Positions 1,709 through 19,980 of a DNA stretch of 64,000 nt are shown in pieces. This DNA comes from an uncultured Dehalococcoidia bacterium (GTDB lineage Bacteria; Chloroflexota; Dehalococcoidia; SM23-28-2). Position 1 is the stretch's first letter, and each line of letters starts with the position of its first letter. The DNA is taken from the NCBI GenBank assembly GCA_964512285.1, contig CAZEJO010000002.1, positions 32,392 to 96,391 of the forward strand, written 5' to 3'. The notes below the pieces were generated by a model, which worked only from the letters and a program-made list of their open reading frames with translations, was not told the origin of the DNA and searched no databases. Made by a program: the position numbers and the translations under genes.

Positions 1709-2890
1709 ATGCTCAGCCTTGGCCCTGACGTTTACGTTCTCGTCTTCGTGCTGGCCGCGGCAGGAGCCTGGAGCCTGACAGCCCTTCTTCCCCTCCACCG
1801 CCTGGCGCGGCCGGCTGAAGCCCGCCTGGGCAGGCGACGGGTGGGAGGCCTGGCAGTTTTCGCTGCCTTCCTCCTAGCGCCCCTCCTGGTCTGTCTGGTC
1901 TCGTCTGACCTCTCCGACCTCCTGGCCTCCCATAAGCGCGAGACAGCCGGTCTGCTGGGTGCCGCCTTGATGATCCTCCTCCTGGGCCTCCTAGACGACT
2001 TCCGGGAGGTGAATTTCAAGATCAAGTTCCTTGTGCAGATAGCAGCCGCTTCCTTGGTGTTCGTCATCGGCTACCGCATCGAGGACGTGTCCCTGCCCTG
2101 GGGCGCCACCTTTTCCCTGGGATGGTCGGCTCCCCTGCTGACCATCCTCTGGCTGGTGTTCCTCACCAACGCCATGAACCTCATCGATGGCAAGGACGGG
2201 ATAGCAGCGGGTGTAGCGATCATCGTGGCCCTCCCCCTCGCTTTCATCGCCGCCGATGTGAACAACCCCCTGGTGGCCGCTCAGTTGGTGGCGGTAGCGG
2301 GAGCCTGCGCTGGCTTCCTCCCCCTCAACCTACCGCGGGCCTCGCGCCTGCTGGGCGACTCAGGAGCGTTGCTGCTGGGCTTCCTGCTGGCGGCCCTGGC
2401 CATCGAGGGCTCCATCGGTGTCACCGGCAGCATGTTCATCAGCGTGCCCATTGTCGCCCTGGGCTTCCCCATCCTCGACACACTGCTCGCTTTTGTCAGG
2501 CGGCTGGCAGACCTGCGGCACCCCTTCGTTGCTGATCTCGATCACATCCAGCATCGGCTGGAGCAGAGAGGCCAGAGCGACAGGGCGGTCGTCCTCTCCC
2601 TCTATGCCCTCTGCATCCTCTTCTCGGGAGCAGCGCTCACGATCCACTATCTCGAGGCAACCGTAGCCGAGTTCCTGGCCTTCTTTGCATTCGGCGCTGC
2701 TATTACTGCTGTCCTCTTCCGGCTGGACTACGCCAGCACTCTGTGGAACAGCGCCTCGCTGGCGTTCCTACGAGGCGCCCTCGCCTCCGCCGTCGGTCTC
2801 CGACGCCAGCCTCCACCGCCCGAGTCGGACGAGCCGAAGATGCCCTACGAGGATCGCCCCCTGCCCGCCAGCAAGCGTCGCCCGTTCTGA
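1709..2890 (+). CDS. Polyprenyl-phosphate N-acetylhexosamine-1-phosphate transferase (WecA/MraY/TagO family), initiating glycosyltransferase.
   Basis: Polytopic membrane protein with the conserved NAMNLIDGKDGIAAG motif of the MraY/WecA family. Sits in a glycan biosynthesis locus. Confidence 0.8.
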   Translation: MLSLGPDVYVLVFVLAAAGAWSLTALLPLHRLARPAEARLGRRRVGGLAVFAAFLLAPLLVCLVSSDLSDLLASHKRETAGLLGAALMILLLGLLDDFREVNFKIKFLVQIAAASLVFVIGYRIEDVSLPWGATFSLGWSAPLLTILWLVFLTNAMNLIDGKDGIAAGVAIIVALPLAFIAADVNNPLVAAQLVAVAGACAGFLPLNLPRASRLLGDSGALLLGFLLAALAIEGSIGVTGSMFISVPIVALGFPILDTLLAFVRRLADLRHPFVADLDHIQHRLEQRGQSDRAVVLSLYALCILFSGAALTIHYLEATVAEFLAFFAFGAAITAVLFRLDYASTLWNSASLAFLRGALASAVGLRRQPPPPESDEPKMPYEDRPLPASKRRPF

Positions 2891-4863: not shown

Positions 4864-4876
4864 GCTCCAATTCCCC

Positions 4877-5803: not shown

Positions 5804-5813
5804 GGGCAGCCCC

Positions 5814-6665
5814 CTAGCGACCCGCCCTGGCCGGGGTGGTGAGGAAGTACTCCTGAAGAGCCTCCTGCCAGGGCCGCAGGACGATGCCCAGGGCAGCCGC
5901 CGCCCGATTGGCCAGCTCCGAATAGGGCGGCTTGCGATAGGGCAGGCCGCCCTCGGCCTGGACGACCGGTCGCAGCGCGACATCGCGGCGGCCCGCCAGC
6001 TCCAGAACCCGCTCGGCCCACTGGTAGCGAGAGCAACTGCCGTTATTGGTCAGGTGATAGATGGCGTAGGTCGGCCGACCGATGAGCTCAGCGATGGCTT
6101 GAGCCAGGTCGCGGGCCCAGGTGGGCGAGGCGACTTCGTCGGTCACGAGGCGCAGCTCGCCTTCGTTGGCGACAGCGCGCAGAACCTTGGCTGAGAAGTT
6201 GTTGCCCCCGGCGGCGTACAGCCAGGCGGTACGCACGATGTAGAAGCGATCGAGGATGGATTGGACGTGTCGCTCTCCGGCGAGCTTCGACCGACCGTAG
6301 GCGTTGATCGGCTTGGGCTCGTCCGATTCCAGATAGGGCTCGCCCTTCTGGCCGTCGAAGACCTCGTTGGTGCTCACGTACAGCATGGCGACATCGCTCT
6401 CGCGACACGCCAGGGCCACCTGCCGGCTGCCCTCGCCGTTGACCCGCATGGCCAGCTCAGGGTCCGCCTCGCAGCCTGCGGTATCGGTGTAGGCGGCGGC
6501 GTGGACGACCACCTGCGGCCGAAACTGGCCGATGGCCCTACCGACCGCCGCCGCATCGGTGATGTCCAGTTCCGGCAGATCCTGGGCCAGCACCGTCTCC
6601 GCAGATAGCGCCTGCTGGAGCTCGCGGCCTAGCTGGCCACGGCCGCCGGTGATGAGGATGCGCAC
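5814..6665 (-). CDS. rmlD: dTDP-4-dehydrorhamnose reductase.
   Basis: MRILITGGRGQLGRELQQAL Rossmann N-terminus and RmlD-like length (283 aa), within an rml cluster. Confidence 0.85.
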   Translation of the reverse strand: MRILITGGRGQLGRELQQALSAETVLAQDLPELDITDAAAVGRAIGQFRPQVVVHAAAYTDTAGCEADPELAMRVNGEGSRQVALACRESDVAMLYVSTNEVFDGQKGEPYLESDEPKPINAYGRSKLAGERHVQSILDRFYIVRTAWLYAAGGNNFSAKVLRAVANEGELRLVTDEVASPTWARDLAQAIAELIGRPTYAIYHLTNNGSCSRYQWAERVLELAGRRDVALRPVVQAEGGLPYRKPPYSELANRAAAALGIVLRPWQEALQEYFLTTPARAGR

Positions 6666-6677
6666 GCCACCACCCCC

Positions 6678-7133
6678 TCAGCCCATCTTGATGGCCCAAT
6701 CGTACGGTATCTGGTCGGTATCCCAGGGGAGACGGTATTCATCCGGCTGCTGTGGGTCGTAAGGCTCAGTGGGGAAGTTGATGAGGAGGGAGGGCTCGAC
6801 GCCCACCGTCTTGTAGCCGTGCATGACCCCCATCGGTATCTTCACCAGAATGTTGTTCTGCTCTCCCAGGAAGAACTCATCCACCTGGCCCTGGGTGGAC
6901 GAACCCTCGCGGGCGTCGTATAGGGCCACCTTAGCCATGCCCTTCACCACCGCGATGTGGTCGTCCTGCTTCTTGTGATAGTGCCAGCCCCGCACCACGC
7001 CTGGATAGTTCAAAGACACGTAGGCCTGACCGAACTTGCCGAAGATATCATCGTCGCAGCGCAGAAGCTCCATCAATGCGCCCCGCTCATCCGCGTGCTT
7101 GGTGAGTTGCTTGATCTCCACGCCCTCGATCAC
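6678..7133 (-). CDS. rmlC: dTDP-4-dehydrorhamnose 3,5-epimerase-related cupin (RmlC-like).
   Basis: Cupin with GWHYHKKQDDH...VKIPMGVMHGY, positioned between rmlD and rmlB. Proposed GTG start at 7133 gives a GTGA overlap with the rmlB stop (translational coupling). The track ORF starts at 7172. Confidence 0.6.
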   Translation of the reverse strand: MIEGVEIKQLTKHADERGALMELLRCDDDIFGKFGQAYVSLNYPGVVRGWHYHKKQDDHIAVVKGMAKVALYDAREGSSTQGQVDEFFLGEQNNILVKIPMGVMHGYKTVGVEPSLLINFPTEPYDPQQPDEYRLPWDTDQIPYDWAIKMG

Positions 7134-8167
7134 AGTTCTCCCTCCTGACGAGCAGCTGCCTCCAGCCGCCAACCGTACTGGCGCTGGTAGTAGTCCTGAT
7201 AGTCACCCGAACGTGCCTTCTGCCACCACGACTCGTTGTCCCCGTACCAGGCGACTGTCCTGGCCAGGGCCTCATCGAAGCCGTAGCGAGGAGCCCAGCC
7301 CAGGGCCCTTATCTTCGACCAGTCCAAACTGTAGCGCTTGTCGTGCCCCGGGCGATCCTCCACGTGGCGGATCAGACTGCGCGGCTTGCCCACCAGATCG
7401 AGGATGGCCTCGGCCACATGGATGTTGTGCCGATAGTTGTCGGCAGCGACATTGTACACCTCCCCCGCCGTCCCTTTGTGCAGAAGCAGGTCGAGGGCCT
7501 CACAGTGATCCTCCACAAAGAGCCAATCGCGCACCTGACAGCCGTCGCCATACAGGGGCAGAGGCTCATCGCGCAGGGCATTGGTGACAAATAAGGGGAT
7601 CATCTTCTCCGGGTACTGACAAGGCCCCAATGTGTTAGCGCCGCGGCTGACAACGACCGGCAGGCCGTAGGAGGCGAAGAAGGCCAGGCAGAGCATATCA
7701 GCGGCCGCCTTGCTGGCGGCGTAGGGGTTGCGGGGCTGAAGAGGATCCGTTTCGCCAAACGAGTATCCTTCGGGCGCCTCGCCGTAGACCTCATCCGTGG
7801 AGACGTAGACGAAACGCTCGATGCCATGCTCGCGCGCAGCACAGAGAAGCACGTAGGTTCCATGAACATCGGTCCTGATGAAAGCATCCGCTCCCAGGAG
7901 CGAGCGGTCAACATGGGTCTCGGCGGCCAGGCTGACGATGGCGTCGGCCTCGCTCACCAACTCGTCCACAAGCTGGCGGTCGCAGATGTCGCCCTTGACG
8001 AAGCGATAGCGGGGGTCGCCCTCTACGTCGCGCAGGTTGTCGCGGTTGCCGGCGTAGGTAAGCTTGTCGACGTTGATGACCTCATACTCAGGGTACTCTC
8101 GCAGCAAGCGGCGCACGAAGTGACTGCCGATGAACCCTGCCCCACCAGTGACTAGAATCCTGCGCAT
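7130..8167 (-). CDS. rmlB: dTDP-glucose 4,6-dehydratase.
   Basis: MRRILVTGGAGFIGSHFVRRLL...YxxxK SDR-extended family; 345 aa. Confidence 0.9.
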   Translation of the reverse strand: MRRILVTGGAGFIGSHFVRRLLREYPEYEVINVDKLTYAGNRDNLRDVEGDPRYRFVKGDICDRQLVDELVSEADAIVSLAAETHVDRSLLGADAFIRTDVHGTYVLLCAAREHGIERFVYVSTDEVYGEAPEGYSFGETDPLQPRNPYAASKAAADMLCLAFFASYGLPVVVSRGANTLGPCQYPEKMIPLFVTNALRDEPLPLYGDGCQVRDWLFVEDHCEALDLLLHKGTAGEVYNVAADNYRHNIHVAEAILDLVGKPRSLIRHVEDRPGHDKRYSLDWSKIRALGWAPRYGFDEALARTVAWYGDNESWWQKARSGDYQDYYQRQYGWRLEAAARQEGEL

Positions 8168-8176
8168 GAGAAGCCT

Positions 8177-9259
8177 CTAGACCGCCGTAATCTGGCTGTG
8201 ATCGCCCAGGGTGAGGACGCAACGGCGGCCCTCCATCCCACCCTCCCCTCTCAGCTCCACATAGCGGCCGATGAGGCTGTCCTCGATGCGGTAGCCCACA
8301 CGCTCGATCAGCGTGTGCTCCATGACCACGCTGTTGGCGATGCGGCTGCCCTCCACCTGGCAGTGATGATAGATGGACGTGCGGGGCCCTATTTGCGAAT
8401 CGACGATCCGGCTCTCCTCGCCAATGGTCAGTGGGCCCTCCAGGACGCTGTTGATCACCTGGACACCGCGCTCGACGATAACCTTACCCCGCACCCGCGA
8501 GGCGCTGTCGATGCTGCCCTCACTCCGCGCTGGCAAAGCATCGAGAACGGTCGCGTTGGCCTCTAAAATATCGCCCATCTTGCCGGTGTCCATCCAGTAT
8601 CGGTCCAGCTCCTGGGCCTGGACAGACAGCCCTTTGTCGATCAGGTACTGGATGGTGTCTGTGATCTCCAGCTCGCCCCGCGCCGAAGGCCGCAGCTGCT
8701 GCACCGCCTCGAACACATGCTGGTCGAAGATGTAGACGCCGATGACCGCCAGGTCACTGGTCGGCTGGCTTGGCTTCTCCACCACCCGTGCCACCCGGCC
8801 ATCCACCAGCTCGGCCACGCCGAAGCTCTGAGGCGTGTCCACCCGTCTCAGAAGAAGCTGGCAGTTACTGGAATCGCTGCGAAAGCGCTCCACGAAGGGG
8901 GCCACACCGCCCAGCACCAGGTTGTCGCCCAGGTAGAGGACGAAGGGCTGGCCAACTAAGAAATCGGCGGCGATCTTCACAGCGTGGGCGATGCCCAGGG
9001 GGGCATCCTGCTGGATGTAGGTCACCCTGGCACCGAAGCGATTGCCGTCGCCCACCGCTTCCTCCACCTGCGCCCGCGTATCGCCCACTACGATGCCGAT
9101 GTCGGTGATGCCGCAGCCCACCAGGTCCTCGATGGCGTAGAAGAGGACGGGCTTGTTAGCGATAGGCACTAGCTGCTTGGCGCCGGAATAAGTGAAGGGG
9201 CGCAAACGTTCGCCTTTGCCGCCGCTGAGGATGAGGCCCTTGAGCTTGTCCTTTGCCAT
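8177..9259 (-). CDS. rmlA: Glucose-1-phosphate thymidylyltransferase, long form (~360 aa, with C-terminal left-handed beta-helix).
   Basis: LILSGGKGERLRPFTYSGAKQLVPIANKPVLFYAIEDL nucleotidyltransferase motif. The long form is typical of archaea and actinobacteria. Confidence 0.85.
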   Translation of the reverse strand: MAKDKLKGLILSGGKGERLRPFTYSGAKQLVPIANKPVLFYAIEDLVGCGITDIGIVVGDTRAQVEEAVGDGNRFGARVTYIQQDAPLGIAHAVKIAADFLVGQPFVLYLGDNLVLGGVAPFVERFRSDSSNCQLLLRRVDTPQSFGVAELVDGRVARVVEKPSQPTSDLAVIGVYIFDQHVFEAVQQLRPSARGELEITDTIQYLIDKGLSVQAQELDRYWMDTGKMGDILEANATVLDALPARSEGSIDSASRVRGKVIVERGVQVINSVLEGPLTIGEESRIVDSQIGPRTSIYHHCQVEGSRIANSVVMEHTLIERVGYRIEDSLIGRYVELRGEGGMEGRRCVLTLGDHSQITAV

Positions 9260-9412: not shown

Positions 9413-10222
9413 GTGCGAGCAGTGTCTGTGGCTGCGCCGCGCCGTTTCGATCTGTCCCAGCTGGCCCGCACCTGGGAGCTGTTGCTGCTCCTGACGGTGC
9501 GGGATGTGAAGCTGCGCTACGAGGGCACCATCCTGGGCTTCCTGTGGACCCTTGCCAAGCCCCTACTCCTAGCGCTGGTCTTCTCCTTCGCCCTGAGCCG
9601 CGTGCTGAGGATAGACGTGGGAGATGCTCCCTACGTCCTGTTCCTGCTGTCAGCTCTGTTCCCCTGGACCTGGTTCCAATCCTCGATCCAGTTCTCCGCC
9701 GGCTCCTTCTCCAATAACGCTGCCCTGCTCAAGAAAGTCTACTTCCCCCGTTTCGTCTTGCCTTTCTCGGCCGTTACCAGCCAGCTTATTCACTTCCTCC
9801 TCTCGATTCCGATACTGGCGCTGCTTCTTTTGGCTGCGGGTTATCGCCCCGGCCCGGAGTGGCTGCTCGGCGTGCCCGTGCTCATGGCCATCCAGCTTCT
9901 GATGCTAGCTGGAGCCGTCCTGTTGGTGGCCTCCTTCAACGTCTTCCTGCGCGACCTGGAGCACTTGGTGGAGGTCCTGATGCTCCTATGGTTGTACGTC
10001 ACCCCTATTCTGTACCCGCTCTCCCTGGTGAAGGAGAGGGTCGGGGCAATCATATATCTCAACCCGATGGCCTCGCTCATTCAGGCCTGGCGGGACCTGT
10101 TTCTGTACGACCAGCTTCCCGGCGTCGACATCTGGCCGGCCCTGGTGTTCGCCGTCATCGCTTTAGTGGCCGGCAGCATCGCATTCAAGACTCTCGAGGG
10201 ACAGTTTGAAATCGTCCTATAA
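9413..10222 (+). CDS. wzm: ABC-2 type polysaccharide export permease (Wzm/TagG/KpsM family).
   Basis: LLLLTVRDVKLRYEGTILGFLWTLAKPLL signature; 6 predicted TM helices; GTG start; followed by an overlapping ATPase gene. Confidence 0.8.
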   Translation: MRAVSVAAPRRFDLSQLARTWELLLLLTVRDVKLRYEGTILGFLWTLAKPLLLALVFSFALSRVLRIDVGDAPYVLFLLSALFPWTWFQSSIQFSAGSFSNNAALLKKVYFPRFVLPFSAVTSQLIHFLLSIPILALLLLAAGYRPGPEWLLGVPVLMAIQLLMLAGAVLLVASFNVFLRDLEHLVEVLMLLWLYVTPILYPLSLVKERVGAIIYLNPMASLIQAWRDLFLYDQLPGVDIWPALVFAVIALVAGSIAFKTLEGQFEIVL

Positions 10223-11003
10223 CGGACAAGCGGTCATCATCCTGGAGAACGTTTCCAAGCGCTACTTCCTCCACCCGCACCGCGTGAGGGAGTTGAAAAG
10301 GGCCATTTTGCATCTGCCGACCTTCTTGAAGACCAATCGGGCCAGGCAGCCCTTCTGGGCGCTCAGAGATGTCTCTCTTACCATCCGCCGGGGCGAGAGT
10401 GTGGGGATCATCGGCCCCAACGGCGCCGGCAAGAGCACCCTGCTGCGGATCGTCTCCCGCCTTGCGCCTCTAACGAAGGGAAAGCTCTCGGTGCGGGGGC
10501 GCGTCTCGCCCCTACTAGAGCTCGGAGCGGGTTTCCATGCTCAGATCAGCGGACGGGATAATGCCGTGCTCAACGCCGTTCTCCTGGGCCTGTCACGTAA
10601 GGAGGCCCAGGAGAAACTGCCGGAGATAGTGGAGTTCTCGGAGCTGGGGAATTTCATCGACCAGCCCATGCGCACCTACTCGTCCGGAATGTACGTGCGC
10701 CTTGGCTTCGCCGTGGCCGTCCACGTCAAGCCGGAGATCCTGCTCGTCGACGAAGTGCTAGCGGTGGGCGACGCTGACTTCCAGCGCAAGTGCTTCGACC
10801 ACATCGAGAAGCTGCGCCAGAGCAAGGCCACCATCGTCCTGGTGAGCCACGACCTGGAGAACGTGAAGCGATTCTGCGACCGGGCTGTCCTCCTCAACCA
10901 CGGGGCCATCGCCGCCGAGGGGGAGCCGCAGGAGGTGGTGGACGAATACCTGTCGAGCCACTTCGAGTTCTCAGCAGGAGCACAGGAAGCCGGCGATGAG
11001 TGA
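10206..11003 (+). CDS. wzt: Polysaccharide ABC exporter ATP-binding protein (Wzt/TagH), short form without a C-terminal carbohydrate-binding domain.
   Basis: Walker A GPNGAGKST, ABC signature YSSGM, Walker B LLVDEVLAVGD; only 265 aa. Confidence 0.85.
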   Translation: MKSSYNGQAVIILENVSKRYFLHPHRVRELKRAILHLPTFLKTNRARQPFWALRDVSLTIRRGESVGIIGPNGAGKSTLLRIVSRLAPLTKGKLSVRGRVSPLLELGAGFHAQISGRDNAVLNAVLLGLSRKEAQEKLPEIVEFSELGNFIDQPMRTYSSGMYVRLGFAVAVHVKPEILLVDEVLAVGDADFQRKCFDHIEKLRQSKATIVLVSHDLENVKRFCDRAVLLNHGAIAAEGEPQEVVDEYLSSHFEFSAGAQEAGDE

Positions 11004-12090
11004 AGTAGAACTACCCGACGCTGGTGAGCGGATGATACCCGCTTTCCACCACGAAGCCGTGGTCTATGCCGAACATATTGTCCGTTATCTGTTCGCTACT
11101 CGATTCGTCAGAGGCAAGCGAGTCCTGGATGTGGCCAGCGGAGTTGGCTACGGAGCCGATCTCCTGAGGTCGGCTGGGGCAGCCGAGGTTGTGGCCATAG
11201 ATCGGTCGCCGGAAGCAATGAAATACGGGCAGAAGCACCATTCCAAGTTCCAACCAGCCTACGTGGTGGGAGATGTCGAATCGCTACCTGTTCGGAGTAG
11301 CCAATTTGACGTCGTCGTATCCTTTGAGACAATCGAGCACGTCCCTGATTATCAGCGTTTCTTGGCCGAAGTGAAACGCGCTCTGCGCCAGGACGGCCTG
11401 TGCATCGTTTCCACTCCCAATAGAGACGTCTACGTGGAGGGAAACCCGTTTCATACAAAGGAGTTCACGTTCGCCGAGTTTGAGCAAGCGCTGGCGAGCC
11501 ATTTCCGATATGTGGAGACCTTCACGCAAGATGACTGGATAGCGAGCGCTGTCTTCTTTCCCGAAGAGATGGAAGGAGCCGATAAACCGTTGGGGAGGCA
11601 GCCAAGTCTCTTCAAGGCTGTTGGCAAATCGCCATCAGAAACGCTATACATGGTGAGTCTTTGCTCTGACGTGCCCTTACCCGAGGCCGGCCAAGAAGTG
11701 GTGCTGACGAGTCTCTATGAGATGCGTTACTATCTTCAAGAGATCGCTCAACGTGATGCGGAGATCGAAAGGCTCAAGGCCGATCTATCTGAGCGGGTGG
11801 CTATGCTAGCCCAGCGCGACGCTGACCTCGCCGAACGTGACGCGTCACTGGTGGAAAAGGACGCCACCATCAGGGAGTTGAGGGAAGCCTACCAGGACAT
11901 CTGGCGACAAATGGGAGCTCTTCAACGGTCCTTCGGCTATCGCCTCTTGGCGGGATACCGGCGGGCGATACGCCGGCTGTTCCCGCCGGACTCACTGAGG
12001 GGCCGTACGTATCGAAGGTCCGTACAAGGGTTGGAAGCCATTGTGCATCAACTCGCATATCTGCCCCGCCCACGGAGGCCACAGCGGTAG
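10996..12090 (+). CDS. Class I SAM-dependent methyltransferase with a C-terminal coiled coil and basic tail (candidate glycan chain-terminating methyltransferase, WbdD-like logic).
   Basis: Motif I VLDVASGVGYGADLL. Residues ~245-300 form a heptad-like repeat (AQRDAEIERLKADLSERVAMLAQRDADLAERDASLVEKDATIRELREAYQD). Arg-rich C-terminus. Start overlaps the wzt stop. Confidence 0.7.
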   Translation: MSEVELPDAGERMIPAFHHEAVVYAEHIVRYLFATRFVRGKRVLDVASGVGYGADLLRSAGAAEVVAIDRSPEAMKYGQKHHSKFQPAYVVGDVESLPVRSSQFDVVVSFETIEHVPDYQRFLAEVKRALRQDGLCIVSTPNRDVYVEGNPFHTKEFTFAEFEQALASHFRYVETFTQDDWIASAVFFPEEMEGADKPLGRQPSLFKAVGKSPSETLYMVSLCSDVPLPEAGQEVVLTSLYEMRYYLQEIAQRDAEIERLKADLSERVAMLAQRDADLAERDASLVEKDATIRELREAYQDIWRQMGALQRSFGYRLLAGYRRAIRRLFPPDSLRGRTYRRSVQGLEAIVHQLAYLPRPRRPQR

Positions 12091-12101
12091 CCTAGGGGGA
12101 T

Positions 12102-14360
12102 ATGTCTATGCCTCAGAAGCCGGCGACGAACTCCCAGGCCCCTAAAGGCCAGCCGAGAACAGATTCCCGCGATGTGAGTCGCGCGGAACTGACCCGGCTT
12201 CGACGAGGGGTGCGGCTTAGGCAAGAAGAGATCGAGAGCCTGCGGCGCCGCCTAAAAGACGTCGAGAGCTCGACGAGCTGGCGGCTGGTCCAGAGCATGC
12301 GGTCGTTGGTTTGGTTTTTCGCGCCCCCGGGTAGCCTCCGCTATCGGTTAGCGATCCGAGCAGTGCGATGGGCGTATTCGGCTCTGAGTACCCCGCCCAG
12401 CAGGCTAGTGAAGCAGCCGCTGCGCTGGGCAACGCGAGTAGTACGCGGCCGTCCAGCGCCTCAGCCGGAGGAATCGGTCTTCGTGGCACCGCGGGTGCAG
12501 AAGCTACGAGTAGGCTGCTACGGCGAGCATTCCTGGTCAGTGGGAGGAGGCGCGGTGCACGTGCTGAAGTTCCTGCTGGCCCTCTCCGACTTCTACGACG
12601 TGGACCTGCTGCTTCCTCCTGGGACACCTCTGCGAGACAAGCGATGGTACCGGCAGAATTTGAACATCGATATCGGAAACGTTGAGGTTAAGAGGTACAC
12701 TGCGGGCGCGGAGGACAACTACGATATCTGGTTCTCGGCAGCCAATGAGAGCATCGTGCTTGCCAGAACGCCGAAAAGCTTCAACATAGTGTTCTTCCCC
12801 TTCGTCGCTCAGGATGGTAGCGGCATCACGCACATCGCCAACAGCAATTACACCGCTTCCCACGTTAGAGAGCGTTACGGAACTCAGGACGTGATGGTGA
12901 TCTACCCCTCCATCGCTCCTGACGAGCTACCCCCCGGCATAAAGGAGCCCATGATCCTGCACGTCAGCCGTTTCACGCTCCCTTCCGCGTTTGCAGACAA
13001 GGCTCATCTAGCGATGATCCAGGCGTTTAAGCGGTTGTGTAGTCGAGGGTTCGAAGGATGGCGACTGGTTCTCGTGGGAGCTACTCTGGATGAGGGCGAG
13101 GCAGTATACGCTTCCCATCTTGCCCGCCATGCCGGCGGCTTTCCCATCGACATCAGGCCCAACCTATCGGCCGCAGAGCTACGTGACTTGTATTCGAGGG
13201 CTTCGATCTACTGGCATGCCACGGGATTGTCGCTGTCGGAACCGGCGGCTCAGGAACACTTCGGGCTGACTATTCTAGAGGGGATGGCTGCCGGAGCGGT
13301 CCCGATCGTCTTCAACTCCGGAGGACCGCCGGAGATTGTGACCCACGGAGAGCATGGTTTTCTCTTCAATTCAGTTGAGGAGCTTGTGAACCTAACGTGG
13401 GAAGTGGCGACCCAACCTGCCCTCTGGAAGAAGCTCTCTCAACGGGCCAACCGACGCTCCTACGACTTCAGCGATGAGGTGATGAAGGACAAGTTGCTAT
13501 CCACGGTAGCCAAGTCGGAAAAAGTATCCGTTATTATCGGTACTCACAACAATTGCCAATATTTGAGGGGGACACTAGACACTCTCTTTCGCCACACGCC
13601 ACCTGGATTTGAGCTCATCATAGTGAACAACGCTAGTGACGATGGAACGAACATCCTTCTGCAATCTCTCAACTATCCCCACCTGAAGATAATCAACAAC
13701 AAGGCAAATCGTGGCTTTGCCGCATTCAATAATCAGGGCCTGCGCCTCGCCACAAGGCCATACGTTCTCTTCCTCAACGACGATGTGGAGCTTACGCCGG
13801 GGTGGCTGGAGCCATTGATTGAGATGCTAGACCTGCACCCCAAAGTTGGTGCTGTGGGGTCACGTCTCCTGTACCCAGATGGTCGGGTTCAGCATGATGG
13901 GAAGATGTTTCTCGCAAAGGACCGCCTGCCCTACCATGTCAACATCGGTGGACGCCCTGGCGAGGACGAAAGACCGGTGGAGGTCGATACGCTGACGGCG
14001 GCTTGCCTCCTTGGACGCAGAGAACTGGTCGGGTTCTCCGAGGACTACCGGCGCGGATACTATGAGGATACCGACATGTGCCTCCGGATCAAAGAGCAAG
14101 GGTATGGCTTGGTCCTACATCGTGGAAGCGTTGTCATACACTACCACGGGATATCGATGGGCAAGAATCAGAGCGCCACAGAACGGGCTCAGGCCAGGAA
14201 CCAACGCCTCTTTTTGAAGCAATGGTCTGCCAAATTCCCGTCGTTAGTCTACATGGCTACGGAAAAGGAGCTTGCCAGCGGCAAGGTGCGCAGCCGGCGG
14301 ATACTGCCCGCTGATGTTTTCTCTCAGAGCTGGCCACTGTCCCACCGCTTGGGGCGCTGA
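12102..14360 (+). CDS. Multidomain glycosyltransferase: N-terminal coiled coil + GT4 + GT2 (candidate polymerase of the ABC-transporter pathway).
   Basis: aa 25-60 coiled coil (RAELTRLRRGVRLRQEEIESLRRRLKDVESS). GT4 motif EHFGLTILEGMAAGAVPIVFNSGGPPEIV. GT2 motif VSVIIGTHNNCQYL...LIIVNNASDDGT...DDVELTPGW. Confidence 0.75.
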   Translation: MSMPQKPATNSQAPKGQPRTDSRDVSRAELTRLRRGVRLRQEEIESLRRRLKDVESSTSWRLVQSMRSLVWFFAPPGSLRYRLAIRAVRWAYSALSTPPSRLVKQPLRWATRVVRGRPAPQPEESVFVAPRVQKLRVGCYGEHSWSVGGGAVHVLKFLLALSDFYDVDLLLPPGTPLRDKRWYRQNLNIDIGNVEVKRYTAGAEDNYDIWFSAANESIVLARTPKSFNIVFFPFVAQDGSGITHIANSNYTASHVRERYGTQDVMVIYPSIAPDELPPGIKEPMILHVSRFTLPSAFADKAHLAMIQAFKRLCSRGFEGWRLVLVGATLDEGEAVYASHLARHAGGFPIDIRPNLSAAELRDLYSRASIYWHATGLSLSEPAAQEHFGLTILEGMAAGAVPIVFNSGGPPEIVTHGEHGFLFNSVEELVNLTWEVATQPALWKKLSQRANRRSYDFSDEVMKDKLLSTVAKSEKVSVIIGTHNNCQYLRGTLDTLFRHTPPGFELIIVNNASDDGTNILLQSLNYPHLKIINNKANRGFAAFNNQGLRLATRPYVLFLNDDVELTPGWLEPLIEMLDLHPKVGAVGSRLLYPDGRVQHDGKMFLAKDRLPYHVNIGGRPGEDERPVEVDTLTAACLLGRRELVGFSEDYRRGYYEDTDMCLRIKEQGYGLVLHRGSVVIHYHGISMGKNQSATERAQARNQRLFLKQWSAKFPSLVYMATEKELASGKVRSRRILPADVFSQSWPLSHRLGR

Positions 14361-14426: not shown

Positions 14427-15707
14427 GTGAGGCTCTGCTTCCTCATGTACCACGGCAGCATGTACTCTGGCGGGCAGGGCATCTATCTTCATTACCTGAC
14501 CCGCGAACTGGCCCGCTTGGGCCACGAGGTGCACGTCATCGCCGGCCCTCCCTATCCCGTCATGGCCGAGGGTGTTCAGGTACACCCCCTGGAGAGCTTT
14601 AGCTGGCTCCGCTACCTGGAAGCGCGGCAGGAGTTCCTGGCCAGGTCCAACCCCCTGAAGTTCTTCTATCCGCTAAACCTGTTCGAGCTCACCACCACCC
14701 GCGTCGGCATCTTGCCCCTGATGTTCACCTTCAGCCTGCGGGCGGTGGCCAAGTTCCAGGAGCTGCACCGGCATGAGCCCTTCGACCTGGTTCACGACAA
14801 CCAGGGCCTGGGCATCGGCCTGTTGCTGATGAAGAGCTTCGGCGTGCCGATCGTGGCCACCATCCACCAGCCCTTGTCAGTAGACATGCGCAACGCAGTC
14901 GCCCAAGCTGAGGGTTCGCTCGAGAAGATCCGTCGCGCGGCCTACTACTACCCCCTCTTCATGCAGGAATTCGTCGCCCGCCGCCTGGACGAGATCATCA
15001 CCGTATCGGAGGCATCAGCCAGCATGGTGGAGCTCGCCTTCGGCATCCCTAGAGCACGGATGAAGGTGATCTACAACGGCATTGATACGGAGGTGTTCCG
15101 TCCCTTGAAGGTGTCGAAGGAGCGCAATAGCATTATCTACGTAGGCAATTCGGAGGACCGCAACAAGGGCGCCGTCTATCTCCTCCAGGCGTTGCGCCAC
15201 CTACGCGACAGCACCGACTACCACCTGACCCTTGTCGATCGGCCGCGCCAGGAGCTGAAGCTAGTTCCCCGCCTGTTGCGCCGCCACGACCTGAGCACTC
15301 GCGTTCGCTTCACCGGGCGCGTTACCACGCCCCAACTGGTGCGCCACTACTGCCGCGCTCAGATGAGTGTCTGCCCCTCCCTGTACGAAGGGTTTGGCCT
15401 GCCCGCCGCCGAGGCCATGGCCTGCGGCCTGCCGGTGGTAGCCACCTCCGGCGGGGCGCTGCCCGAGGTGGTAGAGGACGGCGTCACCGGCATCCTCGTG
15501 CCGCCAGCCGATGCCCGTGCCCTGGCCGAGGCCATGGACAACCTCATGAGAGACGCCCAACTGCGGCAGCGAATGGGGCAGGCGGGCAGGGAGAGGATCC
15601 TGGAGAAGTTCAGTTGGCGGAAGGCTGCTTTGCAGACCGAGGCCGTCTACCAGCAGGTGTGCCAGCCGAGTCCGGCTGCGGCGTCAAAGCCTGTAACCGC
15701 ATCGTAG
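14427..15707 (+). CDS. Glycosyltransferase family 4.
   Basis: EGFGLPAAEAMACGLPVVATSGGALPEVVEDGVTGILVPP. Confidence 0.8.
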   Translation: MRLCFLMYHGSMYSGGQGIYLHYLTRELARLGHEVHVIAGPPYPVMAEGVQVHPLESFSWLRYLEARQEFLARSNPLKFFYPLNLFELTTTRVGILPLMFTFSLRAVAKFQELHRHEPFDLVHDNQGLGIGLLLMKSFGVPIVATIHQPLSVDMRNAVAQAEGSLEKIRRAAYYYPLFMQEFVARRLDEIITVSEASASMVELAFGIPRARMKVIYNGIDTEVFRPLKVSKERNSIIYVGNSEDRNKGAVYLLQALRHLRDSTDYHLTLVDRPRQELKLVPRLLRRHDLSTRVRFTGRVTTPQLVRHYCRAQMSVCPSLYEGFGLPAAEAMACGLPVVATSGGALPEVVEDGVTGILVPPADARALAEAMDNLMRDAQLRQRMGQAGRERILEKFSWRKAALQTEAVYQQVCQPSPAAASKPVTAS

Positions 15708-16246: not shown

Positions 16247-17041
16247 ATGAAGCTGACATCCTTGTTACGCCGCGTCCGGAGAGCTACTCAGCGTCCTTCC
16301 GTGCATCCAGATTCCCCCTTGGACATCGACATCAAGGCCGAGGCCTCAAAACTGCACTGGTACCACTGCATCAAGCTCGCGCCGGGCTACACAACTCCGG
16401 GGATAGCAGGTTGGTCAGCGGATACATCCGGCTGGGAAAAGAAGTATCTGTTTCCCTCTGCCAAGGAGCTGCGCGGCAAATCTTTGCTGGACATCGGCAC
16501 CATGAACGGGTTCTTCGCCTTTGAAGCGGAGAGGAGAGGCGCCTCCCCTGTGGTGGCTATAGATCGGGATCCTCCCGGCTTCCCTGACGCGAGGGAGGCC
16601 TTCAATTTCGCCGCCCGAGCTCTCGAGTCCCGCGTCACCTATCGGGTACGCTCCGTCTACGACCTCGAACCCACAGATTCCGGCACGTTCGATTTCGTCC
16701 TAATGTACGGAGTCCTGTACCACTTGAAGTTCCCGTTGTATGGCCTGTACCGAGCGGCTAGCGTATGCCGTGACGTCTTTCTCCTCGAGACTCACGTCAC
16801 TTTGAAGGATGATTACTCAAGGCCGATGATGCTCTTCTACCCCGGCAATGAGCTTAACGACGAGCCGACAAACTGGTGGGGACCAAACACACGCTGCGTC
16901 GATGCCTTCGTGGAGCATCTGGGATTCCGCATTGAGAAGCGCCTCACTCATCAACAGGATGTCGCTGGCCTCGCGCCAGCTCGCTACACCGTGTGCTGTC
17001 GCCGTGTCCGGCCGACCCCTCCGCCCTTCAGCGAACTCTAG
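16247..17041 (+). CDS. Class I SAM-dependent methyltransferase-like protein.
   Basis: WYHCIKLAPGYTTPG...GKSLLDIGTMNGFFAFEA (glycine-rich motif I) ... FDFVLMYGVLYHLKFP. The last 9 codons lie inside a 135-bp repeat shared with the next gene. Confidence 0.5.
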   Translation: MKLTSLLRRVRRATQRPSVHPDSPLDIDIKAEASKLHWYHCIKLAPGYTTPGIAGWSADTSGWEKKYLFPSAKELRGKSLLDIGTMNGFFAFEAERRGASPVVAIDRDPPGFPDAREAFNFAARALESRVTYRVRSVYDLEPTDSGTFDFVLMYGVLYHLKFPLYGLYRAASVCRDVFLLETHVTLKDDYSRPMMLFYPGNELNDEPTNWWGPNTRCVDAFVEHLGFRIEKRLTHQQDVAGLAPARYTVCCRRVRPTPPPFSEL

Positions 17042-17150: not shown

Positions 17151-17498
17151 AGCCAGACCTTAGTGTCGGCCCGCCAGACAGAGAAGGAGTGCCGTTGGCC
17201 ACGCTGAGGACCCCCGGCAGAGTCATGACGGCCAAAGCGGGCCCCTGGCTGGCGGTAGCTCTACTCTTCTCTGTGGCCGCCAGCGTCCAGCCCACGCTTG
17301 CCCTCATCGTCGCTCGCTGCAACGGGCGCGACACCGGCCGGCCCTGGTTGCCACCCCTGGTCGCCGCTGCTCTCAGGGAGTAAACTCTTGCCCGGTGACT
17401 CACCACAATCCCAATCCGCTTACACACTTAAGGCACCTCTTCCCCAGACGCAGAATCGATTGACATGGCGGGCGCCGGATGCCCTAATAAGCGTTGTT

Positions 17499-19652
17499 AT
17501 GCACGGCACACTCTCCAGCGTAGACGAGGTGCGACAGGCTGCATGGCGCCGGGCGTTATCCAACTTCGCTGTGCGGCTATCTCCGCAGCACCCGCTGGTC
17601 GGCCTGGATGCGTTAGTCTTGGGTTTGCTGGCCGCCCTCTCTGCCTATATCACCTATCGGCTGTACGCCTTCACCTACGACGACGTCTACCTGGCCTTCA
17701 CCTACGCACGCAACTTGGTCGAGGGCCATGGGTTCGTCTTCAACGGCGAGGAGATCCTCAGCACCCCTGCGCCCTTGTTCGTCCTCTTGTTGGCCCTGGG
17801 CAATATTGTGGTGCCCGACGTCAGCATTCCGGGCGTCGCCAGCCTCATCAATGGGGCTTCCCTCTTTGCTATGGCCGCCACTCTGTATCTGCTGGGCAGT
17901 CATCTATCGGGGCGGACCGTAGGGTTCGCCGTCGCTGTCCTCTCCCTTTTCAATCCACTGATACTCCATTCTTTTGGCAGCGAGACCCCGTTTTTCCTGG
18001 CCCTGGTCCTGGGCGCCTTCTACACATACCTGACCGGTAGGACGTACCTGCCGGCCTTTCTGCTGGCGATGGCGGCTCTGTGCAGAACGGAGGCGGTTAT
18101 CCCCGGCGTCATCATCCTGGCCCACCTCCTCTATACCAGACGCCGCGCCGCCTTACCTTTTGTGTCTGCTGGCCTTTTGTCGGTGGCGCCCTGGCTGGTC
18201 TTCTCAGGAGTCTATTTCGGCTCTCCTCTCACCAGCTCCTTCGCCGCCAAGCAGGCCCAGGTGAAAGCGGGAGCCGGCTTCGCATCCTTCCTGGAAGGGG
18301 CCAGGGATTGGGTCCCTAACATCATGCTAGATGGCGACGAAAGGTACCTTCTGGCGGCGCCCCTGGTGGGGCTGGGTCTCCTGGTGCTGGCCACTGGGGA
18401 CCGTCGCTGGCTCCTGGTGCTGGCCTGGCCCCTGGCCCAGGCTCTCTTTTATACCCAGCTGGGGATCCACTTCTACTGGTGGTACGCCGCCGCGCCGGGC
18501 CTCGGCCTCAGCATCGTCGCCGGCTTGGCCGTAGGAGTGATCCCCATGGCCTTGAAGATTGTCATCCCCTACGCCCGTGAGAGGGGGGGCAGATTGTTGG
18601 TGCTGCGCGTCGCACAGCCTCAAGAACGGGAATCCTCTCTGCTTCTGCTGGTGTCCATCGCTGGAGCCATCCTGGTGGCGGGCACCGTCGTGGCCTTGGT
18701 CTGGACGGGCCACCATCATCTGACCAGCTTCAAGGACCGGCAGAAAGGCATCAACGATCTCTACACTGCCACCGGCAAATGGCTGCAGGATAACACCCCT
18801 CCGAACGCCTCGCTGGCCTATGCGGAGATCGGCCAGATCTCCTTCTACTCCGACCGCCGGACTATCGACATCCTGGCAGTAGTGACCCCCTCGCAGGTAG
18901 ACCACTTGGCCAAGGCCGATTATCTCTGGCCGTACCTGTGCTACGAACCGGACTACATCCTTTACAACCCCGCGCTTTCCATCTGGAACGGGCAGATCAA
19001 GACCGAGTCGTGGTTCAAGCACTCCTACCGAGAGGTGGCAGCTGTCCGGGTCGCCACGTATCCCTTCCCTATGCATGTGTACGAAAGGCAGCCGGCGGCT
19101 GCGATCCCGTTGCCGGTGGAGGAGGTTGACGTACACCAGACCAAGCTAGACTTGGGCTTTTCCCCCGGGCAGATTGGGGGCGGGAACGTCGTGGGCCAGA
19201 CGTTCCGCTCAAGGCACGACAACCTCTCGGCGGTGGAGGTGGTGTTCGGCAATGTGGGGCTGGGCAACGCGGCCACCATCGTCTTCCACCTTAAGGCGTC
19301 TCCGGTAGGCGAAGACCTGGTGCGGATGGAGGTGGCGGCGGCCGACCTGGAGCCCAATGCCTATTACGCCTTTCGCTTCCCTGCGATTGCCCAGACCAAA
19401 GGGAAGGAGTTCTACTTCTACTTGGAGGCCGTTGAAGCAGCCCCGGGAAACGGCGTCACCGTCTTCGCTCAGTCCGGGAACCCCTATTCCGACGGCAGCC
19501 TCTTTCAAAACCACGGAGCCCGCGAAGGCGACCTCGCTTTCAAGACGCGCTATCGGCTGCCCGATTCAGCCATCGACAACGAATGCCGGGCCAGCCGACC
19601 CCTCCGCCCTTCAGCGAACTCTAGCGCCTATGGCGCGTCCTGGTCTAAGTGA
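17499..19652 (+). CDS. GT-C fold integral membrane glycosyltransferase (PMT/ArnT-like; candidate oligosaccharyl- or glycan-transferase) with a C-terminal soluble domain.
   Basis: ~11-13 TM segments in aa 30-400. First-loop acidic motif YAFTYDDVYLAFTYARNLVEGHGF, as in GT-C families GT39/GT83. ~300-aa hydrophilic C-terminal domain. The track ORF begins at 17298, but the first in-frame ATG preceding the first TM helix is 17499; the true start is uncertain. The last 21 codons lie in repeat copy 2. Confidence 0.6.
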   Translation: MHGTLSSVDEVRQAAWRRALSNFAVRLSPQHPLVGLDALVLGLLAALSAYITYRLYAFTYDDVYLAFTYARNLVEGHGFVFNGEEILSTPAPLFVLLLALGNIVVPDVSIPGVASLINGASLFAMAATLYLLGSHLSGRTVGFAVAVLSLFNPLILHSFGSETPFFLALVLGAFYTYLTGRTYLPAFLLAMAALCRTEAVIPGVIILAHLLYTRRRAALPFVSAGLLSVAPWLVFSGVYFGSPLTSSFAAKQAQVKAGAGFASFLEGARDWVPNIMLDGDERYLLAAPLVGLGLLVLATGDRRWLLVLAWPLAQALFYTQLGIHFYWWYAAAPGLGLSIVAGLAVGVIPMALKIVIPYARERGGRLLVLRVAQPQERESSLLLLVSIAGAILVAGTVVALVWTGHHHLTSFKDRQKGINDLYTATGKWLQDNTPPNASLAYAEIGQISFYSDRRTIDILAVVTPSQVDHLAKADYLWPYLCYEPDYILYNPALSIWNGQIKTESWFKHSYREVAAVRVATYPFPMHVYERQPAAAIPLPVEEVDVHQTKLDLGFSPGQIGGGNVVGQTFRSRHDNLSAVEVVFGNVGLGNAATIVFHLKASPVGEDLVRMEVAAADLEPNAYYAFRFPAIAQTKGKEFYFYLEAVEAAPGNGVTVFAQSGNPYSDGSLFQNHGAREGDLAFKTRYRLPDSAIDNECRASRPLRPSANSSAYGASWSK

Positions 19653-19744: not shown

Positions 19745-19818
19745 CGCCCCCGGCAGGACTCGAACCCACAACCGCCTGGTCCGAAGCCAGGCGCTCTATC
19801 CAATTGAGCTACGGGGGC
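19745..19818 (-). tRNA. tRNA-Arg (anticodon TCG).
   Basis: Minus-strand GCCCCCG-TA-GCTC-AATTGGATA-GAGC-G-CCTGG-CTTCGGA-CCAGG-CGGTT-GTGGG-TTCGAGT-CCTGC-CGGGGGC-G. Cloverleaf folded by hand: 7-bp acceptor, U33, G37. CCA not encoded. Confidence 0.85.
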
Positions 19819-19980
19819 ACCTTCGACCCATTGACTGAGCCAACCCAAGCTACGGAGTGTTCAACAAGCCCTAGAAAGTTTATCATAGGCCTCGTACGGC
19901 CTCAACCGCGCTTATCTGTCGACAAGCACGCTAGCTCACAACCGCCTGAGGGAGCCAACGTGGAGCAAGACGCCGAGGTC

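Follow-up and report, generated by a model that had tools for sequence, protein, structure and literature searches.

Several described pathways for glycan export pair a multi-module polymerase with a chain terminator carried on a coiled-coil stalk. In Escherichia coli O8, where the gene order is wzm-wzt-wbdD-wbdA with a 1-nt overlap, the 425-aa terminator WbdD is methyltransferase-only (PMC3482155). It consists of an N-terminal class I methyltransferase (MT) domain of ~220 aa, a heptad region of ~70 residues and a basic helix of the S-x-S-W-R type, and the membrane-proximal part of E. coli WbdD is known to recruit the polymerase WbdA (PMC3482155, PMC11231755). Terminator and polymerase are joined in two proteins of Klebsiella pneumoniae, namely O7 ORF6 (an MT-kinase, a coiled coil and a GT2-GT2 glycosyltransferase pair) and O12 WbbB (terminator, coiled coil, polymerase). 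Terminators are always placed at the coiled coil's distal end, and relatives of ORF6 are known both with and without attached glycosyltransferase (GT) modules (PMC11231755). In the monoderm Geobacillus stearothermophilus NRS 2004/3a, the S-layer glycan protein WsaE is one soluble polypeptide with three functions, and its N-terminal MT domain adds the 2-O-methyl group that caps a rhamnan (PMC2943079).

We analysed a 64,000-nt stretch of DNA (the window) from a Dehalococcoidia-like host, in which the products of two adjacent genes are probably the polymerase and chain terminator of a pathway that makes a lipid-linked cell-surface glycan for Wzm/Wzt export. We assign this reading a probability of about 0.6; it is well supported by sequence comparison rather than by experiment. 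An initial annotation had presented the locus as an analogous but simpler, methyltransferase-only counterpart of the O9a pair and as a compact ruler system outside the Enterobacteriaceae. Neither is new, the first because O8 WbdD is already built in this way, and the second since the strategy is widespread: WsaE (PMC2943079) and the fused and split relatives of Klebsiella O7 ORF6 (PMC11231755) place it beyond E. coli and beyond that family. The likeness to a WbdD-type terminator on a coiled-coil stalk, acting with a multi-module polymerase and Wzm/Wzt, is strongly supported by comparison of fusions, heptad quantisation, association with Wzt and the match to O8 WbdD.

Architecture of the two proteins

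Both open reading frames, 10996-12090 (MT protein, 364 aa) and 12102-14360 (GT protein, 752 aa), were confirmed. They and their surroundings contain the following features.

1709..2890, + strand: WecA/MraY-family polyprenyl-phosphate sugar-phosphate transferase (Pfam Glycos_transf_4, E 1.3e-34), a candidate initiating enzyme
5814..9259, - strand: dTDP-sugar genes rmlD, rmlC-like cupin, rmlB and rmlA-like nucleotidyltransferase (Pfam)
9413..10222, + strand: wzm, ABC-2 type permease of the glycan exporter (Pfam ABC2_membrane, E 1.4e-12)
10206..11003, + strand: wzt, nucleotide-binding subunit, 265 aa (Pfam)
10996..11667, + strand: class I SAM-dependent MT domain, aa 1-224 (Pfam Methyltransf_11, E 6e-23)
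11716..11928, + strand: continuous heptad-patterned helix of 71 residues, aa 241-311 (AF2, heptad scan and table)
11932..12087, + strand: Arg-rich MT tail (AF2 helices, hydrophobic moment, composition)
12165..12269, + strand: coil stub of the GT protein, a 35-residue N-terminal helix, aa 22-56 (AF2, heptad scan)
12273..12386, + strand: second amphipathic module (STSWRLVQSMRSLVWFFAPPGSLRYRLAIRAV...), helices aa 58-73 and 79-95 (BLASTP, AF2)
12507..13511, + strand: GT4-type module of GT-B fold, aa 136-470 (Pfam Glycos_transf_1, Glyco_trans_1_4)
13524..14246, + strand: GT2-type module of GT-A fold, aa 475-715 (Pfam Glycos_transf_2, E 4e-28; AF2)
14427..15707, + strand: single-module GT4 in the same operon as the pair (Pfam)
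16247..17041, + strand: MT2, a second methyltransferase (Pfam Methyltransf_9/23/11)

The cluster thus combines genes for a WecA-like initiator and several single GTs with rml, wzm and wzt. For wzm and the 1709..2890 product, the closest NCBIfam models are the galactan-export Wzm/RfbD permease and WecA, respectively, each under the model cut-off. The glycan is probably rhamnose-containing; a terminal O-methyl-rhamnose would be a guess prompted by the rml genes. MT2 is conserved beside the system in relatives, with orthologues in loci L001, L002 and L003, and either methyltransferase might therefore be the one that caps the chain. The MT gene was initially annotated as translationally coupled to wzt, and the two genes do overlap: the MT ATG at 10996 lies within the final wzt codons, giving an overlap of 8 nt with the stop at 11001-11003 (junction ...GGCGATGAGTGA), and AGGAAG lies upstream of the start.

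Pfam models Methyltransf_11/25/23 cover aa 25-158 of the MT protein. Its SAM motif is VLDVASGVGYG, and D45, G49, G53 and D69 are invariant among 56 homologues. AlphaFold2 (AF2) models most of the domain with pLDDT >90 and the whole protein with pLDDT 89. The solved structures most like it are those of generic class I methyltransferases. Most of these act on small molecules, but RebM and AtmM have sugar substrates; O9a WbdD was not among the top structural matches. We propose that this domain is the chain-capping enzyme.

The predicted coiled coil after this domain is present by heptad scan and AF2, but at 71 residues it is longer than the ~55 originally given, and would extend ~10.5 nm if straight. 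In the AF2 model it links the confidently predicted MT domain to the amphipathic helices, with block-mean pLDDT of 93-96 for aa 251-300 and 86 for aa 301-310. The heptad scan picks out aa 236-319, one heptad position is hydrophobic in 10/10 heptads, and the hydrophobicity power at period 3.5 is equalled by 1.5% of shuffles. The central heptads (AxRDAxL) offer a single bulky hydrophobic position and Arg/Lys at the other core position, so that the helix need not form a canonical dimeric or trimeric coil. No DNA tandem repeat was found in the MT coil region of the window. We propose that this helix serves as the ruler stalk.

The remaining tail (aa 312-364) is indeed Arg-rich, with 13 Arg, no Lys and 2 Asp/Glu over 53 residues. 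An amphipathic helix at aa 313-328 (SFGYRLLAGYRRAIRRL; net charge +5; hydrophobic moment 0.74, equalled by 2.6% of shuffles) is followed by a PP break, a helix at aa 334-354 and a basic end, and we propose that the tail is both a membrane anchor and a partner-docking region. The N-terminus of the GT protein resembles it in sequence (BLASTP E 0.003) and has an identical three-helix layout by AF2.

The GT4-GT2 protein likewise bears out its first description, including the N-terminal coil, which has a net charge of +4. Its amphipathic module runs into a disordered basic linker ending at aa 127, and aa 57-135 contain 14 Arg/Lys and 2 Asp/Glu. Glycos_transf_1 spans aa 283-449 of the GT4 module, in which the EX7E-type pair E385/E393 is invariant and AF2 with Foldseek yields matches to GT4 enzymes at E about 1e-16. 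Glycos_transf_2 spans aa 476-641 of the GT2 module, where N559, D560 and D561 are nearly invariant.

The plan is shared with WbdD of E. coli O8 and Klebsiella O5, where the genes again run wzm-wzt-MT-polymerase and the MT start again overlaps the end of wzt, and the O8 and window terminators both have a multi-module GT partner. An hhalign comparison of the MT family profile with O8 WbdD gives a probability of 98.5% (E 3e-15) over the MT domain; pairwise sequence similarity between the two proteins is not significant. The coil meets the S-x-S-W-R helix at 'NSRSWRITQPLRW' (position 308) in O8 WbdD and at 'RSFGYRLLAGYRR' (position 312) in the window protein, after which 117 and 52 residues follow, respectively. 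The window system differs in three ways: its polymerase has a coil stub, whereas the 1213-aa multi-module WbdA has no N-terminal coil; its Wzt lacks a carbohydrate-binding module (CBM), whereas the 404-aa O8 protein falls in the length class with a C-terminal extension; and its host is Dehalococcoidia-like rather than a proteobacterium. Its sugars are also probably dTDP-derived, in place of GDP-mannose.

Fused relatives, heptad steps and possible coil pairing

At least 19 Chloroflexota orthologues (980-1050 aa) are single MT-coil-amphipathic helix-GT4-GT2 polypeptides, and the five aligned directly are 43-53% identical to the window MT and 54-60% identical to the window GT. Their clusters contain rml genes, MT2 and a CBM-less Wzt. 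The window pair is the split form of this protein. The fused proteins resemble O7 ORF6 and O12 WbbB in placing the terminator at the coil's distal end and the polymerase GTs proximally (PMC11231755), and the O7 glycan contains rhamnose, as the window glycan probably does. Unlike those two proteins, the window system is split, with the coil end and helix module kept in both halves, has no kinase domain, combines GT4 with GT2 rather than GT2 with GT2, and is served by a Wzt without a CBM. Compared by description, the WsaE locus is similar in its overlapping wzm, wzt and wsaE and its rml genes (PMC2943079), and the window system differs in being split and in carrying membrane-binding modules.

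Measured between the close of the MT domain (LYMVSLCS) and the helix motif (S-x-G-[WY]-R), the spacer is 80, 87, 94, 101 or 115 residues long in split forms and 73, 80 or 87 in fused forms. Each of these lengths leaves a remainder of 3 on division by 7, with two exceptions, 83 and 90, that are shifted by 3. Stalk length is thus quantised in whole heptads between 73 and 115 residues, although the heptad-sized indels could in part be due to 21-nt repeats slipping and not to structural selection (P0015 versus P0016).

These features suggest a mechanism in which the basic amphipathic module would hold the GT4-GT2 protein at the cytoplasmic face of the membrane while it extends the chain. The equivalent module would anchor the MT protein, with the helical stalk holding its catalytic domain roughly 10 nm away. 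A chain would be O-methylated at the non-reducing end only once it had grown long enough to contact that domain, the cap would stop elongation, and chain length could be tuned by stalk length, altered over evolution in whole heptads.

Whether the two coils also pair is a separate question. The GT stub, orthologous to the final ~35 coil residues of the fused proteins, and the base of the MT coil have the same heptad register when counted from the helix motif, so that a basic stub would lie in register with an acidic base. Over the 35 residues before the motif, split MTs average a charge of -2.2, split GTs +2.2 and fused proteins +0.2, a pattern that fits heteromeric pairing. Identical register and opposite charge are what speak for pairing in these sequences, and recruitment of WbdA by WbdD points the same way. 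Alternatively, each protein might self-associate and bind the membrane through its own amphipathic module, the two sharing only surface and substrate. In favour of this view, the stub is simply the conserved last part of the fused-protein coil, O8 WbdA has no N-terminal coil, and in other phyla the GT adjoining the MT lacks a coil and is held by a transmembrane helix or basic N-terminus. We regard this arrangement as a serious contender, falling somewhat short of an even chance.

Export, possible decoration and the two-gene split

In the window Wzt, Pfam matches ABC_tran only and no cap-binding module, and an HMM of Wzt C-terminal extensions had no match in six frames of the window, whereas positive controls L016 and L019 were matched. 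The orthologues in L001-L003 have just 1-10 residues after the nucleotide-binding domain, and Wzt is CBM-less throughout the Chloroflexota clade. Across phyla, the MT family is associated with CBM-bearing transporters. A wzt gene lies within 10 kb in 49 of 78 related loci (directly before the MT in 25), 39 of these 49 have a Wzt extension of ≥139 aa, and all seven extensions sampled are Pfam Wzt_C. This module reads terminal caps, and a CBM is present in all characterised terminated systems (PMC11231755). Because the window exporter lacks such a module, its export is probably not gated by a cap. Cap-gated export, the defining feature of the O9a paradigm to which the locus had been likened, is therefore not reproduced.

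The same observation suits a different account, in which the MT decorates the glycan within the chain or without terminating it, the helix is an oligomerisation device or scaffold, and length follows from the exporter:polymerase ratio with export coupled to elongation. Klebsiella O2a is the precedent: its Wzt is also a nucleotide-binding domain only, and how long its chains grow depends on the ratio of transporter to biosynthesis complex and not on a terminating cap (PMC11231755). MT2 implies more than one methylation, methylation by WsaE in vitro does not depend on how long the chain is (PMC2943079), and the Pseudomonas aeruginosa CPA methyltransferases, similar to O8 WbdD, are needed for synthesis and yet are not WbdD-type length regulators (PMC3560663). 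We nevertheless consider decoration unlikely. The window, unlike O2a, has a terminator-like MT on a coil, and in split and fused forms alike the catalytic domain is distal on a long stalk with the anchor opposite, an arrangement ill suited to modifying each residue as it is made at the membrane. The variation of the stalk by heptad steps and the cap-reading Wzt proteins adjoining most MT relatives also favour the ruler and terminator.

Finally, the existence of fused orthologues and the position of the two reading frames, 11 nt apart and in different frames, might suggest one gene broken by a frameshift in assembly or sequencing, but this is effectively refuted: each half has a full copy of the coil end and amphipathic module where fused proteins have one, the summed lengths (1116 aa) exceed those of fused proteins, and a Shine-Dalgarno-like GGGGGA precedes the GT start within the spacer. 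The split is real: a matching pair (364 aa and roughly 768 aa), also with an 11-nt spacer, recurs in the independent Dehalococcoidia MAG CP070630.1. Metagenomic MT homologues of 70-90% identity fall in the same length class and have a C-terminal end of like kind.

The methyltransferase and GT4-GT2 proteins and their fused relatives

A glycan biosynthesis cluster occupies approximately 1.7-19.7 kb of the window. Within it, wzm and wzt, which encode the permease and ATPase of a glycan exporter, lie together with the genes for a methyltransferase that carries a long helix (MT, 364 aa) and a two-module glycosyltransferase (GT, 752 aa), and are flanked by rml, WecA-like and glycosyltransferase genes:

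1709-2890, + strand: WecA/MraY-family initiating transferase
2845-5983, - strand: three single-module glycosyltransferases
5814-9259, - strand: rmlD, rmlC-like cupin, rmlB and rmlA-like nucleotidyltransferase
9413-10222, + strand: wzm
10206-11003, + strand: wzt (265 aa)
10996-12090, + strand: MT, methyltransferase-coil protein
12102-14360, + strand: GT, GT4-GT2 protein
14427-15707, + strand: single GT4
16247-17041, + strand: MT2, second methyltransferase (Methyltransf_9/23-like; TIGR04290-family match below cut-off)
17298-19652, + strand: polytopic membrane protein (784 aa)

The end of wzt contains the start codon of MT (GGCGATGAGTGA), which produces an 8-nt overlap between the two genes. The MT stop and the GT start are separated by 11 nt and lie in different frames, with GGGGGA preceding the GT start. 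Gene order and spacing are identical in the closest genome, the Dehalococcoidia MAG CP070630.1, whose MT is 89% identical.

An AlphaFold2 model of the MT monomer (56 homologues, pLDDT 89) places a class I methyltransferase domain at aa 1-224, in which the SAM motif is conserved among homologues. Beyond this domain lie a single unbroken helix of 71 residues (aa 241-311) and two shorter helices, at aa 313-328 (16 residues) and aa 334-354, with a Pro-Pro break between the two. The catalytic domain thus sits at one end of the coil and basic amphipathic helices (313-354) at the other, an order that recurs in fused orthologues. The first short helix has a hydrophobic moment of 0.74 and a net charge of +5, and the tail contains 13 Arg in 53 residues. 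Coiled-coil character was judged by our own heptad scoring: one heptad position of the long helix is occupied by Leu, Ile, Tyr, Met or Phe in 10 of 10 heptads, and the second core position has hydrophobic residues at the two helix ends and Arg or Lys in the central AxRDAxL repeats.

The GT model (AlphaFold2, pLDDT 88) begins with a disordered N-terminus and then repeats the three-helix layout of MT on a smaller scale (aa 22-56, 58-73 and 79-95). The stretch up to aa 127 is a basic, disordered linker, and the two catalytic modules follow, GT-B (GT4) at aa 136-470 and GT-A (GT2) at aa 475-715, with conserved catalytic signatures (E385/E393 and N559-D560-D561, respectively). The first of the three helices, 35 residues long, is the N-terminal coil proposed for this protein. 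BLASTP detects homology between the tail of MT and the N-terminus of GT (E 0.003), with a shared ...S-x-x-[WY]-R...PP-x-SLR-x-R pattern. The initial observation was therefore correct except for the length of the MT stalk, which is approximately 71 residues rather than the 55 or so first estimated. Foldseek searches with the GT model returned only generic GT4 and GT2 enzymes, from which no donor or linkage could be assigned; the top match, a mycobacterial methylmannose-polysaccharide mannosyltransferase, was discounted because its score was no better than that of BshA.

Among the GT homologues recovered by search, approximately 25 from Chloroflexota bear methyltransferase domains as well, and at least 19 are 980-1050 aa long. 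In these orthologues the terminator and polymerase modules share one polypeptide, whereas in the window they occupy separate ORFs. In the five fusions that were aligned directly, identity is 43-53% between the N-terminal part and the window MT and 54-60% between the C-terminal part and the window GT. The two window proteins align on one segment of the fusion, the approximately 80 residues that comprise the coil end and the amphipathic helix, and thus by alignment the pair is a split form of an MT-coil-helix-GT4-GT2 enzyme in which the junction module is doubled. A frameshift or sequencing artefact is excluded, since each half has its own junction module, the two halves together are longer than the fusions, and independent assemblies show the same split. 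Clusters with the fused gene share the rml genes and MT2 with the window and encode a short Wzt. In a crude neighbour-joining tree of the GT part, the fused forms make up one clade nested among split forms.

Stalk length and an exporter without a cap-reading module

We measured the spacer between the end of the methyltransferase domain (LYMVSLCS) and the helix motif. It is 80, 87, 94, 101 or 115 residues in 19 split homologues and 73, 80 or 87 residues in fused proteins. All values equal 3 modulo 7 save two (83 and 90), which are shifted by three residues, and this phase is common to fused and split proteins despite their dissimilar coil sequences. Heptad-stepped lengths of this kind suggest that the helix serves as a spacer whose length is selected, and give indirect support to a coil that sets chain length. 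The near-identical homologues P0015 and P0016 are one DKDAALA unit apart within a run of perfect heptad repeats; some length differences are hence exact copies of a seven-residue unit, and repeat slippage seems to contribute to them. DNA tandem repeats as the origin of the heptads in this genome were dropped, as none was found at a score of 30 or more in the stalk region of the window. In the wider family, our own scan found heptad-patterned regions of approximately 20 to nearly 300 residues.

The short GT coil corresponds to the well-conserved coil end of the fused proteins (RLRR-x-L-x-x-RQGELE-x-LRRRL-x-x-IE-x-S-x-GWR), and, measured from the helix motif, its heptad register is the same as that of the MT stalk base. 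Net charge over the 35 residues before the motif averages -2.2 for split MTs, +2.2 for split GTs and +0.2 for the fused proteins. Opposite charges and a common register fit in-register heteromeric pairing of the two proteins but do not prove it, as the sequences compared are related. In other phyla, the GT that adjoins MT has no coil stub, and a transmembrane helix or a basic N-terminus anchors it instead.

To place the MT family, we surveyed 80 loci in many phyla, using one genome per species (including Solirubrobacterales, Cellulomonas, Saccharibacteria, Bryobacteraceae, Lachnospiraceae, Paraburkholderia, Pseudoxanthomonas and a few archaea). With the addition of L001 and L002, two related loci that encode the fused enzyme, 78 loci have a scorable MT ORF. 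A Wzt-type ATPase is encoded within 10 kb of MT in 49 of the 78, and MT immediately follows wzt in 25. Proteins of this family are, by genomic association, glycan-pathway enzymes. The PDB was searched with the protein (phmmer), the family profile (hmmsearch) and the AlphaFold2 model (Foldseek), and only generic class I methyltransferases matched. The initial annotation had treated grouping with unrelated small-molecule enzymes as evidence against its proposal, and the survey answers this point: similarity to solved structures groups the domain with generic, mostly small-molecule methyltransferases, whereas its genomic association is that of a glycan-pathway enzyme.

Many Wzt proteins carry a C-terminal carbohydrate-binding module (CBM; Wzt_C), which recognizes terminal caps and is present with all characterized terminated O-antigens (PMC11231755). 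At least 139 residues extend beyond the nucleotide-binding domain of Wzt in 39 of the 49 loci, and all seven of the extensions sampled are Pfam Wzt_C. This association is evidence that the MT family works on the ends of exported glycans. The window Wzt matches ABC_tran alone and ends with its nucleotide-binding domain, as it does in L001, L002 and a further close relative, L003. Wzt_C-like sequence is absent from all six frames of the 64-kb window and of L001-L003, although controls matched, which rules out a CBM encoded elsewhere in these regions. Overall, CBM-less Wzt proteins occur in 10 of the 49 loci. Multi-domain MT proteins are found in 6 of these 10, compared with 7 of the 39 CBM-bearing loci (Fisher p = 0.014 across L001-L082, a small sample in which kinship is ignored). 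If MT is a terminator, then capping in this system is not tied to export through the known mechanism.

Comparison with known terminators and models of chain-length control

The capping of sugar chains by coiled-coil rulers is a textbook mechanism, established almost wholly in E. coli and Klebsiella. In every characterized case known to us, the cap doubles as an export ticket that is read by a module of the transporter. In E. coli O9a, wbdD mutants are blocked in export. We used the O8 cluster of E. coli IAI1 as the prototype for comparison. Its order is wzm, wzt (404 aa), the terminator O8 WbdD (a 425-aa class I methyltransferase) and the polymerase WbdA (1213 aa), and the O8 WbdD gene overlaps wzt by 1 nt; both systems therefore share a wzm-wzt-MT-polymerase arrangement with overlapping wzt stop and MT start. 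O8 WbdD comprises a methyltransferase domain of approximately 220 aa, a heptad region at about 240-307 and 'NSRSWRITQPLRW' (SRSWR) at residue 308, and the window MT likewise places 'RSFGYRLLAGYRR' (SFGYR) at 312, so that both have a coil that passes into a basic helix around residue 310. The partners differ, since O8 WbdA lacks the N-terminal coil stub of the window GT4-GT2 protein. The family profile aligns with the O8 WbdD methyltransferase domain (hhalign probability 98.5%, E 3e-15, 144 columns), whereas pairwise BLASTP is not significant (E 1.7), and O9a WbdD was not among the top PDB matches of phmmer, hmmsearch or Foldseek. On these comparisons, kinship between MT and WbdD is at the superfamily level only.

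The 'analogous but simpler', methyltransferase-only architecture has the layout of O8 WbdD and is therefore the O8 WbdD design, in which a simple methyltransferase is enough for chain-length control (PMC3482155). Nor would this be the first compact ruler system outside the Enterobacteriaceae: Geobacillus WsaE, a monoderm precedent, combines a methyltransferase with two rhamnosyltransferase domains, forms a 2-O-methyl cap and is encoded by overlapping wzm-wzt-wsaE (PMC2943079). The fused Chloroflexota relatives have counterparts in Klebsiella O7 ORF6 (methyltransferase-kinase, coil and GT2-GT2; rhamnose-containing) and O12 WbbB, ORF6 relatives exist with and without attached glycosyltransferase modules, and the strategy is widespread (PMC11231755). 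The system is accordingly of a known kind, and a useful comparative case rather than a surprise. What sets it apart is the CBM-less exporter, the split enzyme with a doubled junction module, the Chloroflexota host and the natural heptad series.

We consider it probable (roughly 0.6), by analogy, that MT and GT form a terminator/ruler pair. Following the WbdD/WbbB/ORF6 paradigm, amphipathic modules would keep both proteins at the cytoplasmic face of the membrane, where GT4-GT2 would polymerize a lipid-linked chain. MT, at a distance of approximately 10 nm (71 residues of about 0.15 nm), would methylate the non-reducing end once the chain was long enough, and growth would stop. The capped chain would then leave through Wzm/Wzt with its cap unread. 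The functional analogy with WbdD and WbdA that the initial annotation drew is the best available explanation. The resemblance fails at the exporter, because in the class of WbdD, WbbB, KpO4 ORF7 and KpO7 ORF6 the CBM of Wzt reads the cap.

The missing CBM also favours the main alternative, in which MT merely decorates the chain and the stoichiometry of exporter to polymerase sets its length, as in the CBM-less Klebsiella O2a system. Pseudomonas aeruginosa CPA offers a precedent (PMC3560663), and the cluster encodes a second methyltransferase, MT2, which is kept beside the system in L001, L002 and L003. This conservation implies that the glycan probably bears methyl groups at positions of more than one kind. 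We regard decoration without length control as rather improbable.

A more specific form of the terminator/ruler model is tentative, and we judge it somewhat improbable. In such a bipartite ruler, the basic 35-residue GT stub would zip in register, Fos/Jun-like, with the acidic MT stalk base and restore from two polypeptides the terminator-polymerase complex of the fused relatives. With no cap-reading exporter, stalk geometry alone would set chain length, with no export checkpoint, and the stalk would be tuned across Chloroflexota by single heptads (approximately 1 nm).

To our knowledge, the envelope glycans of Chloroflexota are essentially uncharacterized. If the terminator/ruler model is correct, this locus and its relatives extend the mechanism to that phylum and provide a natural case in which to test whether a ruler-terminator functions in the absence of an export checkpoint. 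The close relatives, whose stalks differ by exact heptads and which include fused and split forms, offer a ready set for experiments on the ruler hypothesis. What is gained is incremental and not conceptual, as the architecture, its methyltransferase-only version and fused/split variability have already been described.

Further features of the locus and its relatives

The end of the coil is marked by a junction motif, S-x-[SGA]-[WY]-[RK], followed by a basic helix (window 11929-11979 and 12270-12320; 4457-5734, - strand, of locus L084). This motif is covered by no Pfam model and is found in methyltransferases and fused MT-GT proteins of many phyla, with variants that include NSRSWRITQPLRW in E. 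coli O8 WbdD, SFGYR and STSWR in the window, and SRAWK, SKSWR and SLSWK in other phyla. Among further fused relatives (P0148, P0140, P0150 and P0159), some carry another methyltransferase domain on the same coil-GT4-GT2 chassis (P0148, only 24% identical), and others have approximately 300 extra N-terminal residues, for a total of about 1300 aa. These differences suggest swapping of the terminator module.

None of the eight proteins compared with curated NCBIfam models reached the cut-offs. The assignments of rmlB and rmlD are clear. The gene labelled rmlC (6678-7172, - strand) encodes a short cupin of 164 aa that matches both dTDP_sugar_isom and FdtA (isomerases) and overlaps rmlB by 43 nt, and that labelled rmlA (8177-9259, - strand) encodes a 360-aa protein with a C-terminal left-handed beta-helix. 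The 6-deoxy-sugar product may not be plain L-rhamnose.

The 784-aa protein (17298-19652) has at least eight predicted transmembrane segments within its first 470 residues. It has no match in NCBIfam, and its sole Pfam match is a weak one to PIG-U (GT-C-like); possible functions are those of a GT-C glycosyltransferase or of a ligase that works outside the membrane. A GT87-like membrane protein occupies a comparable position in L001, with no detectable homology between the two. The G+C content is 0.58-0.59 over wzt, MT and GT (window 10001-14000), compared with 0.62-0.65 in the flanks (1-8 kb and 22-28 kb). An MgtE transporter gene (19804-21306) follows the glycan cluster, and hydrogenase maturation genes (hypF, hypD and neighbours; 22354-27033, + strand) lie beyond it.
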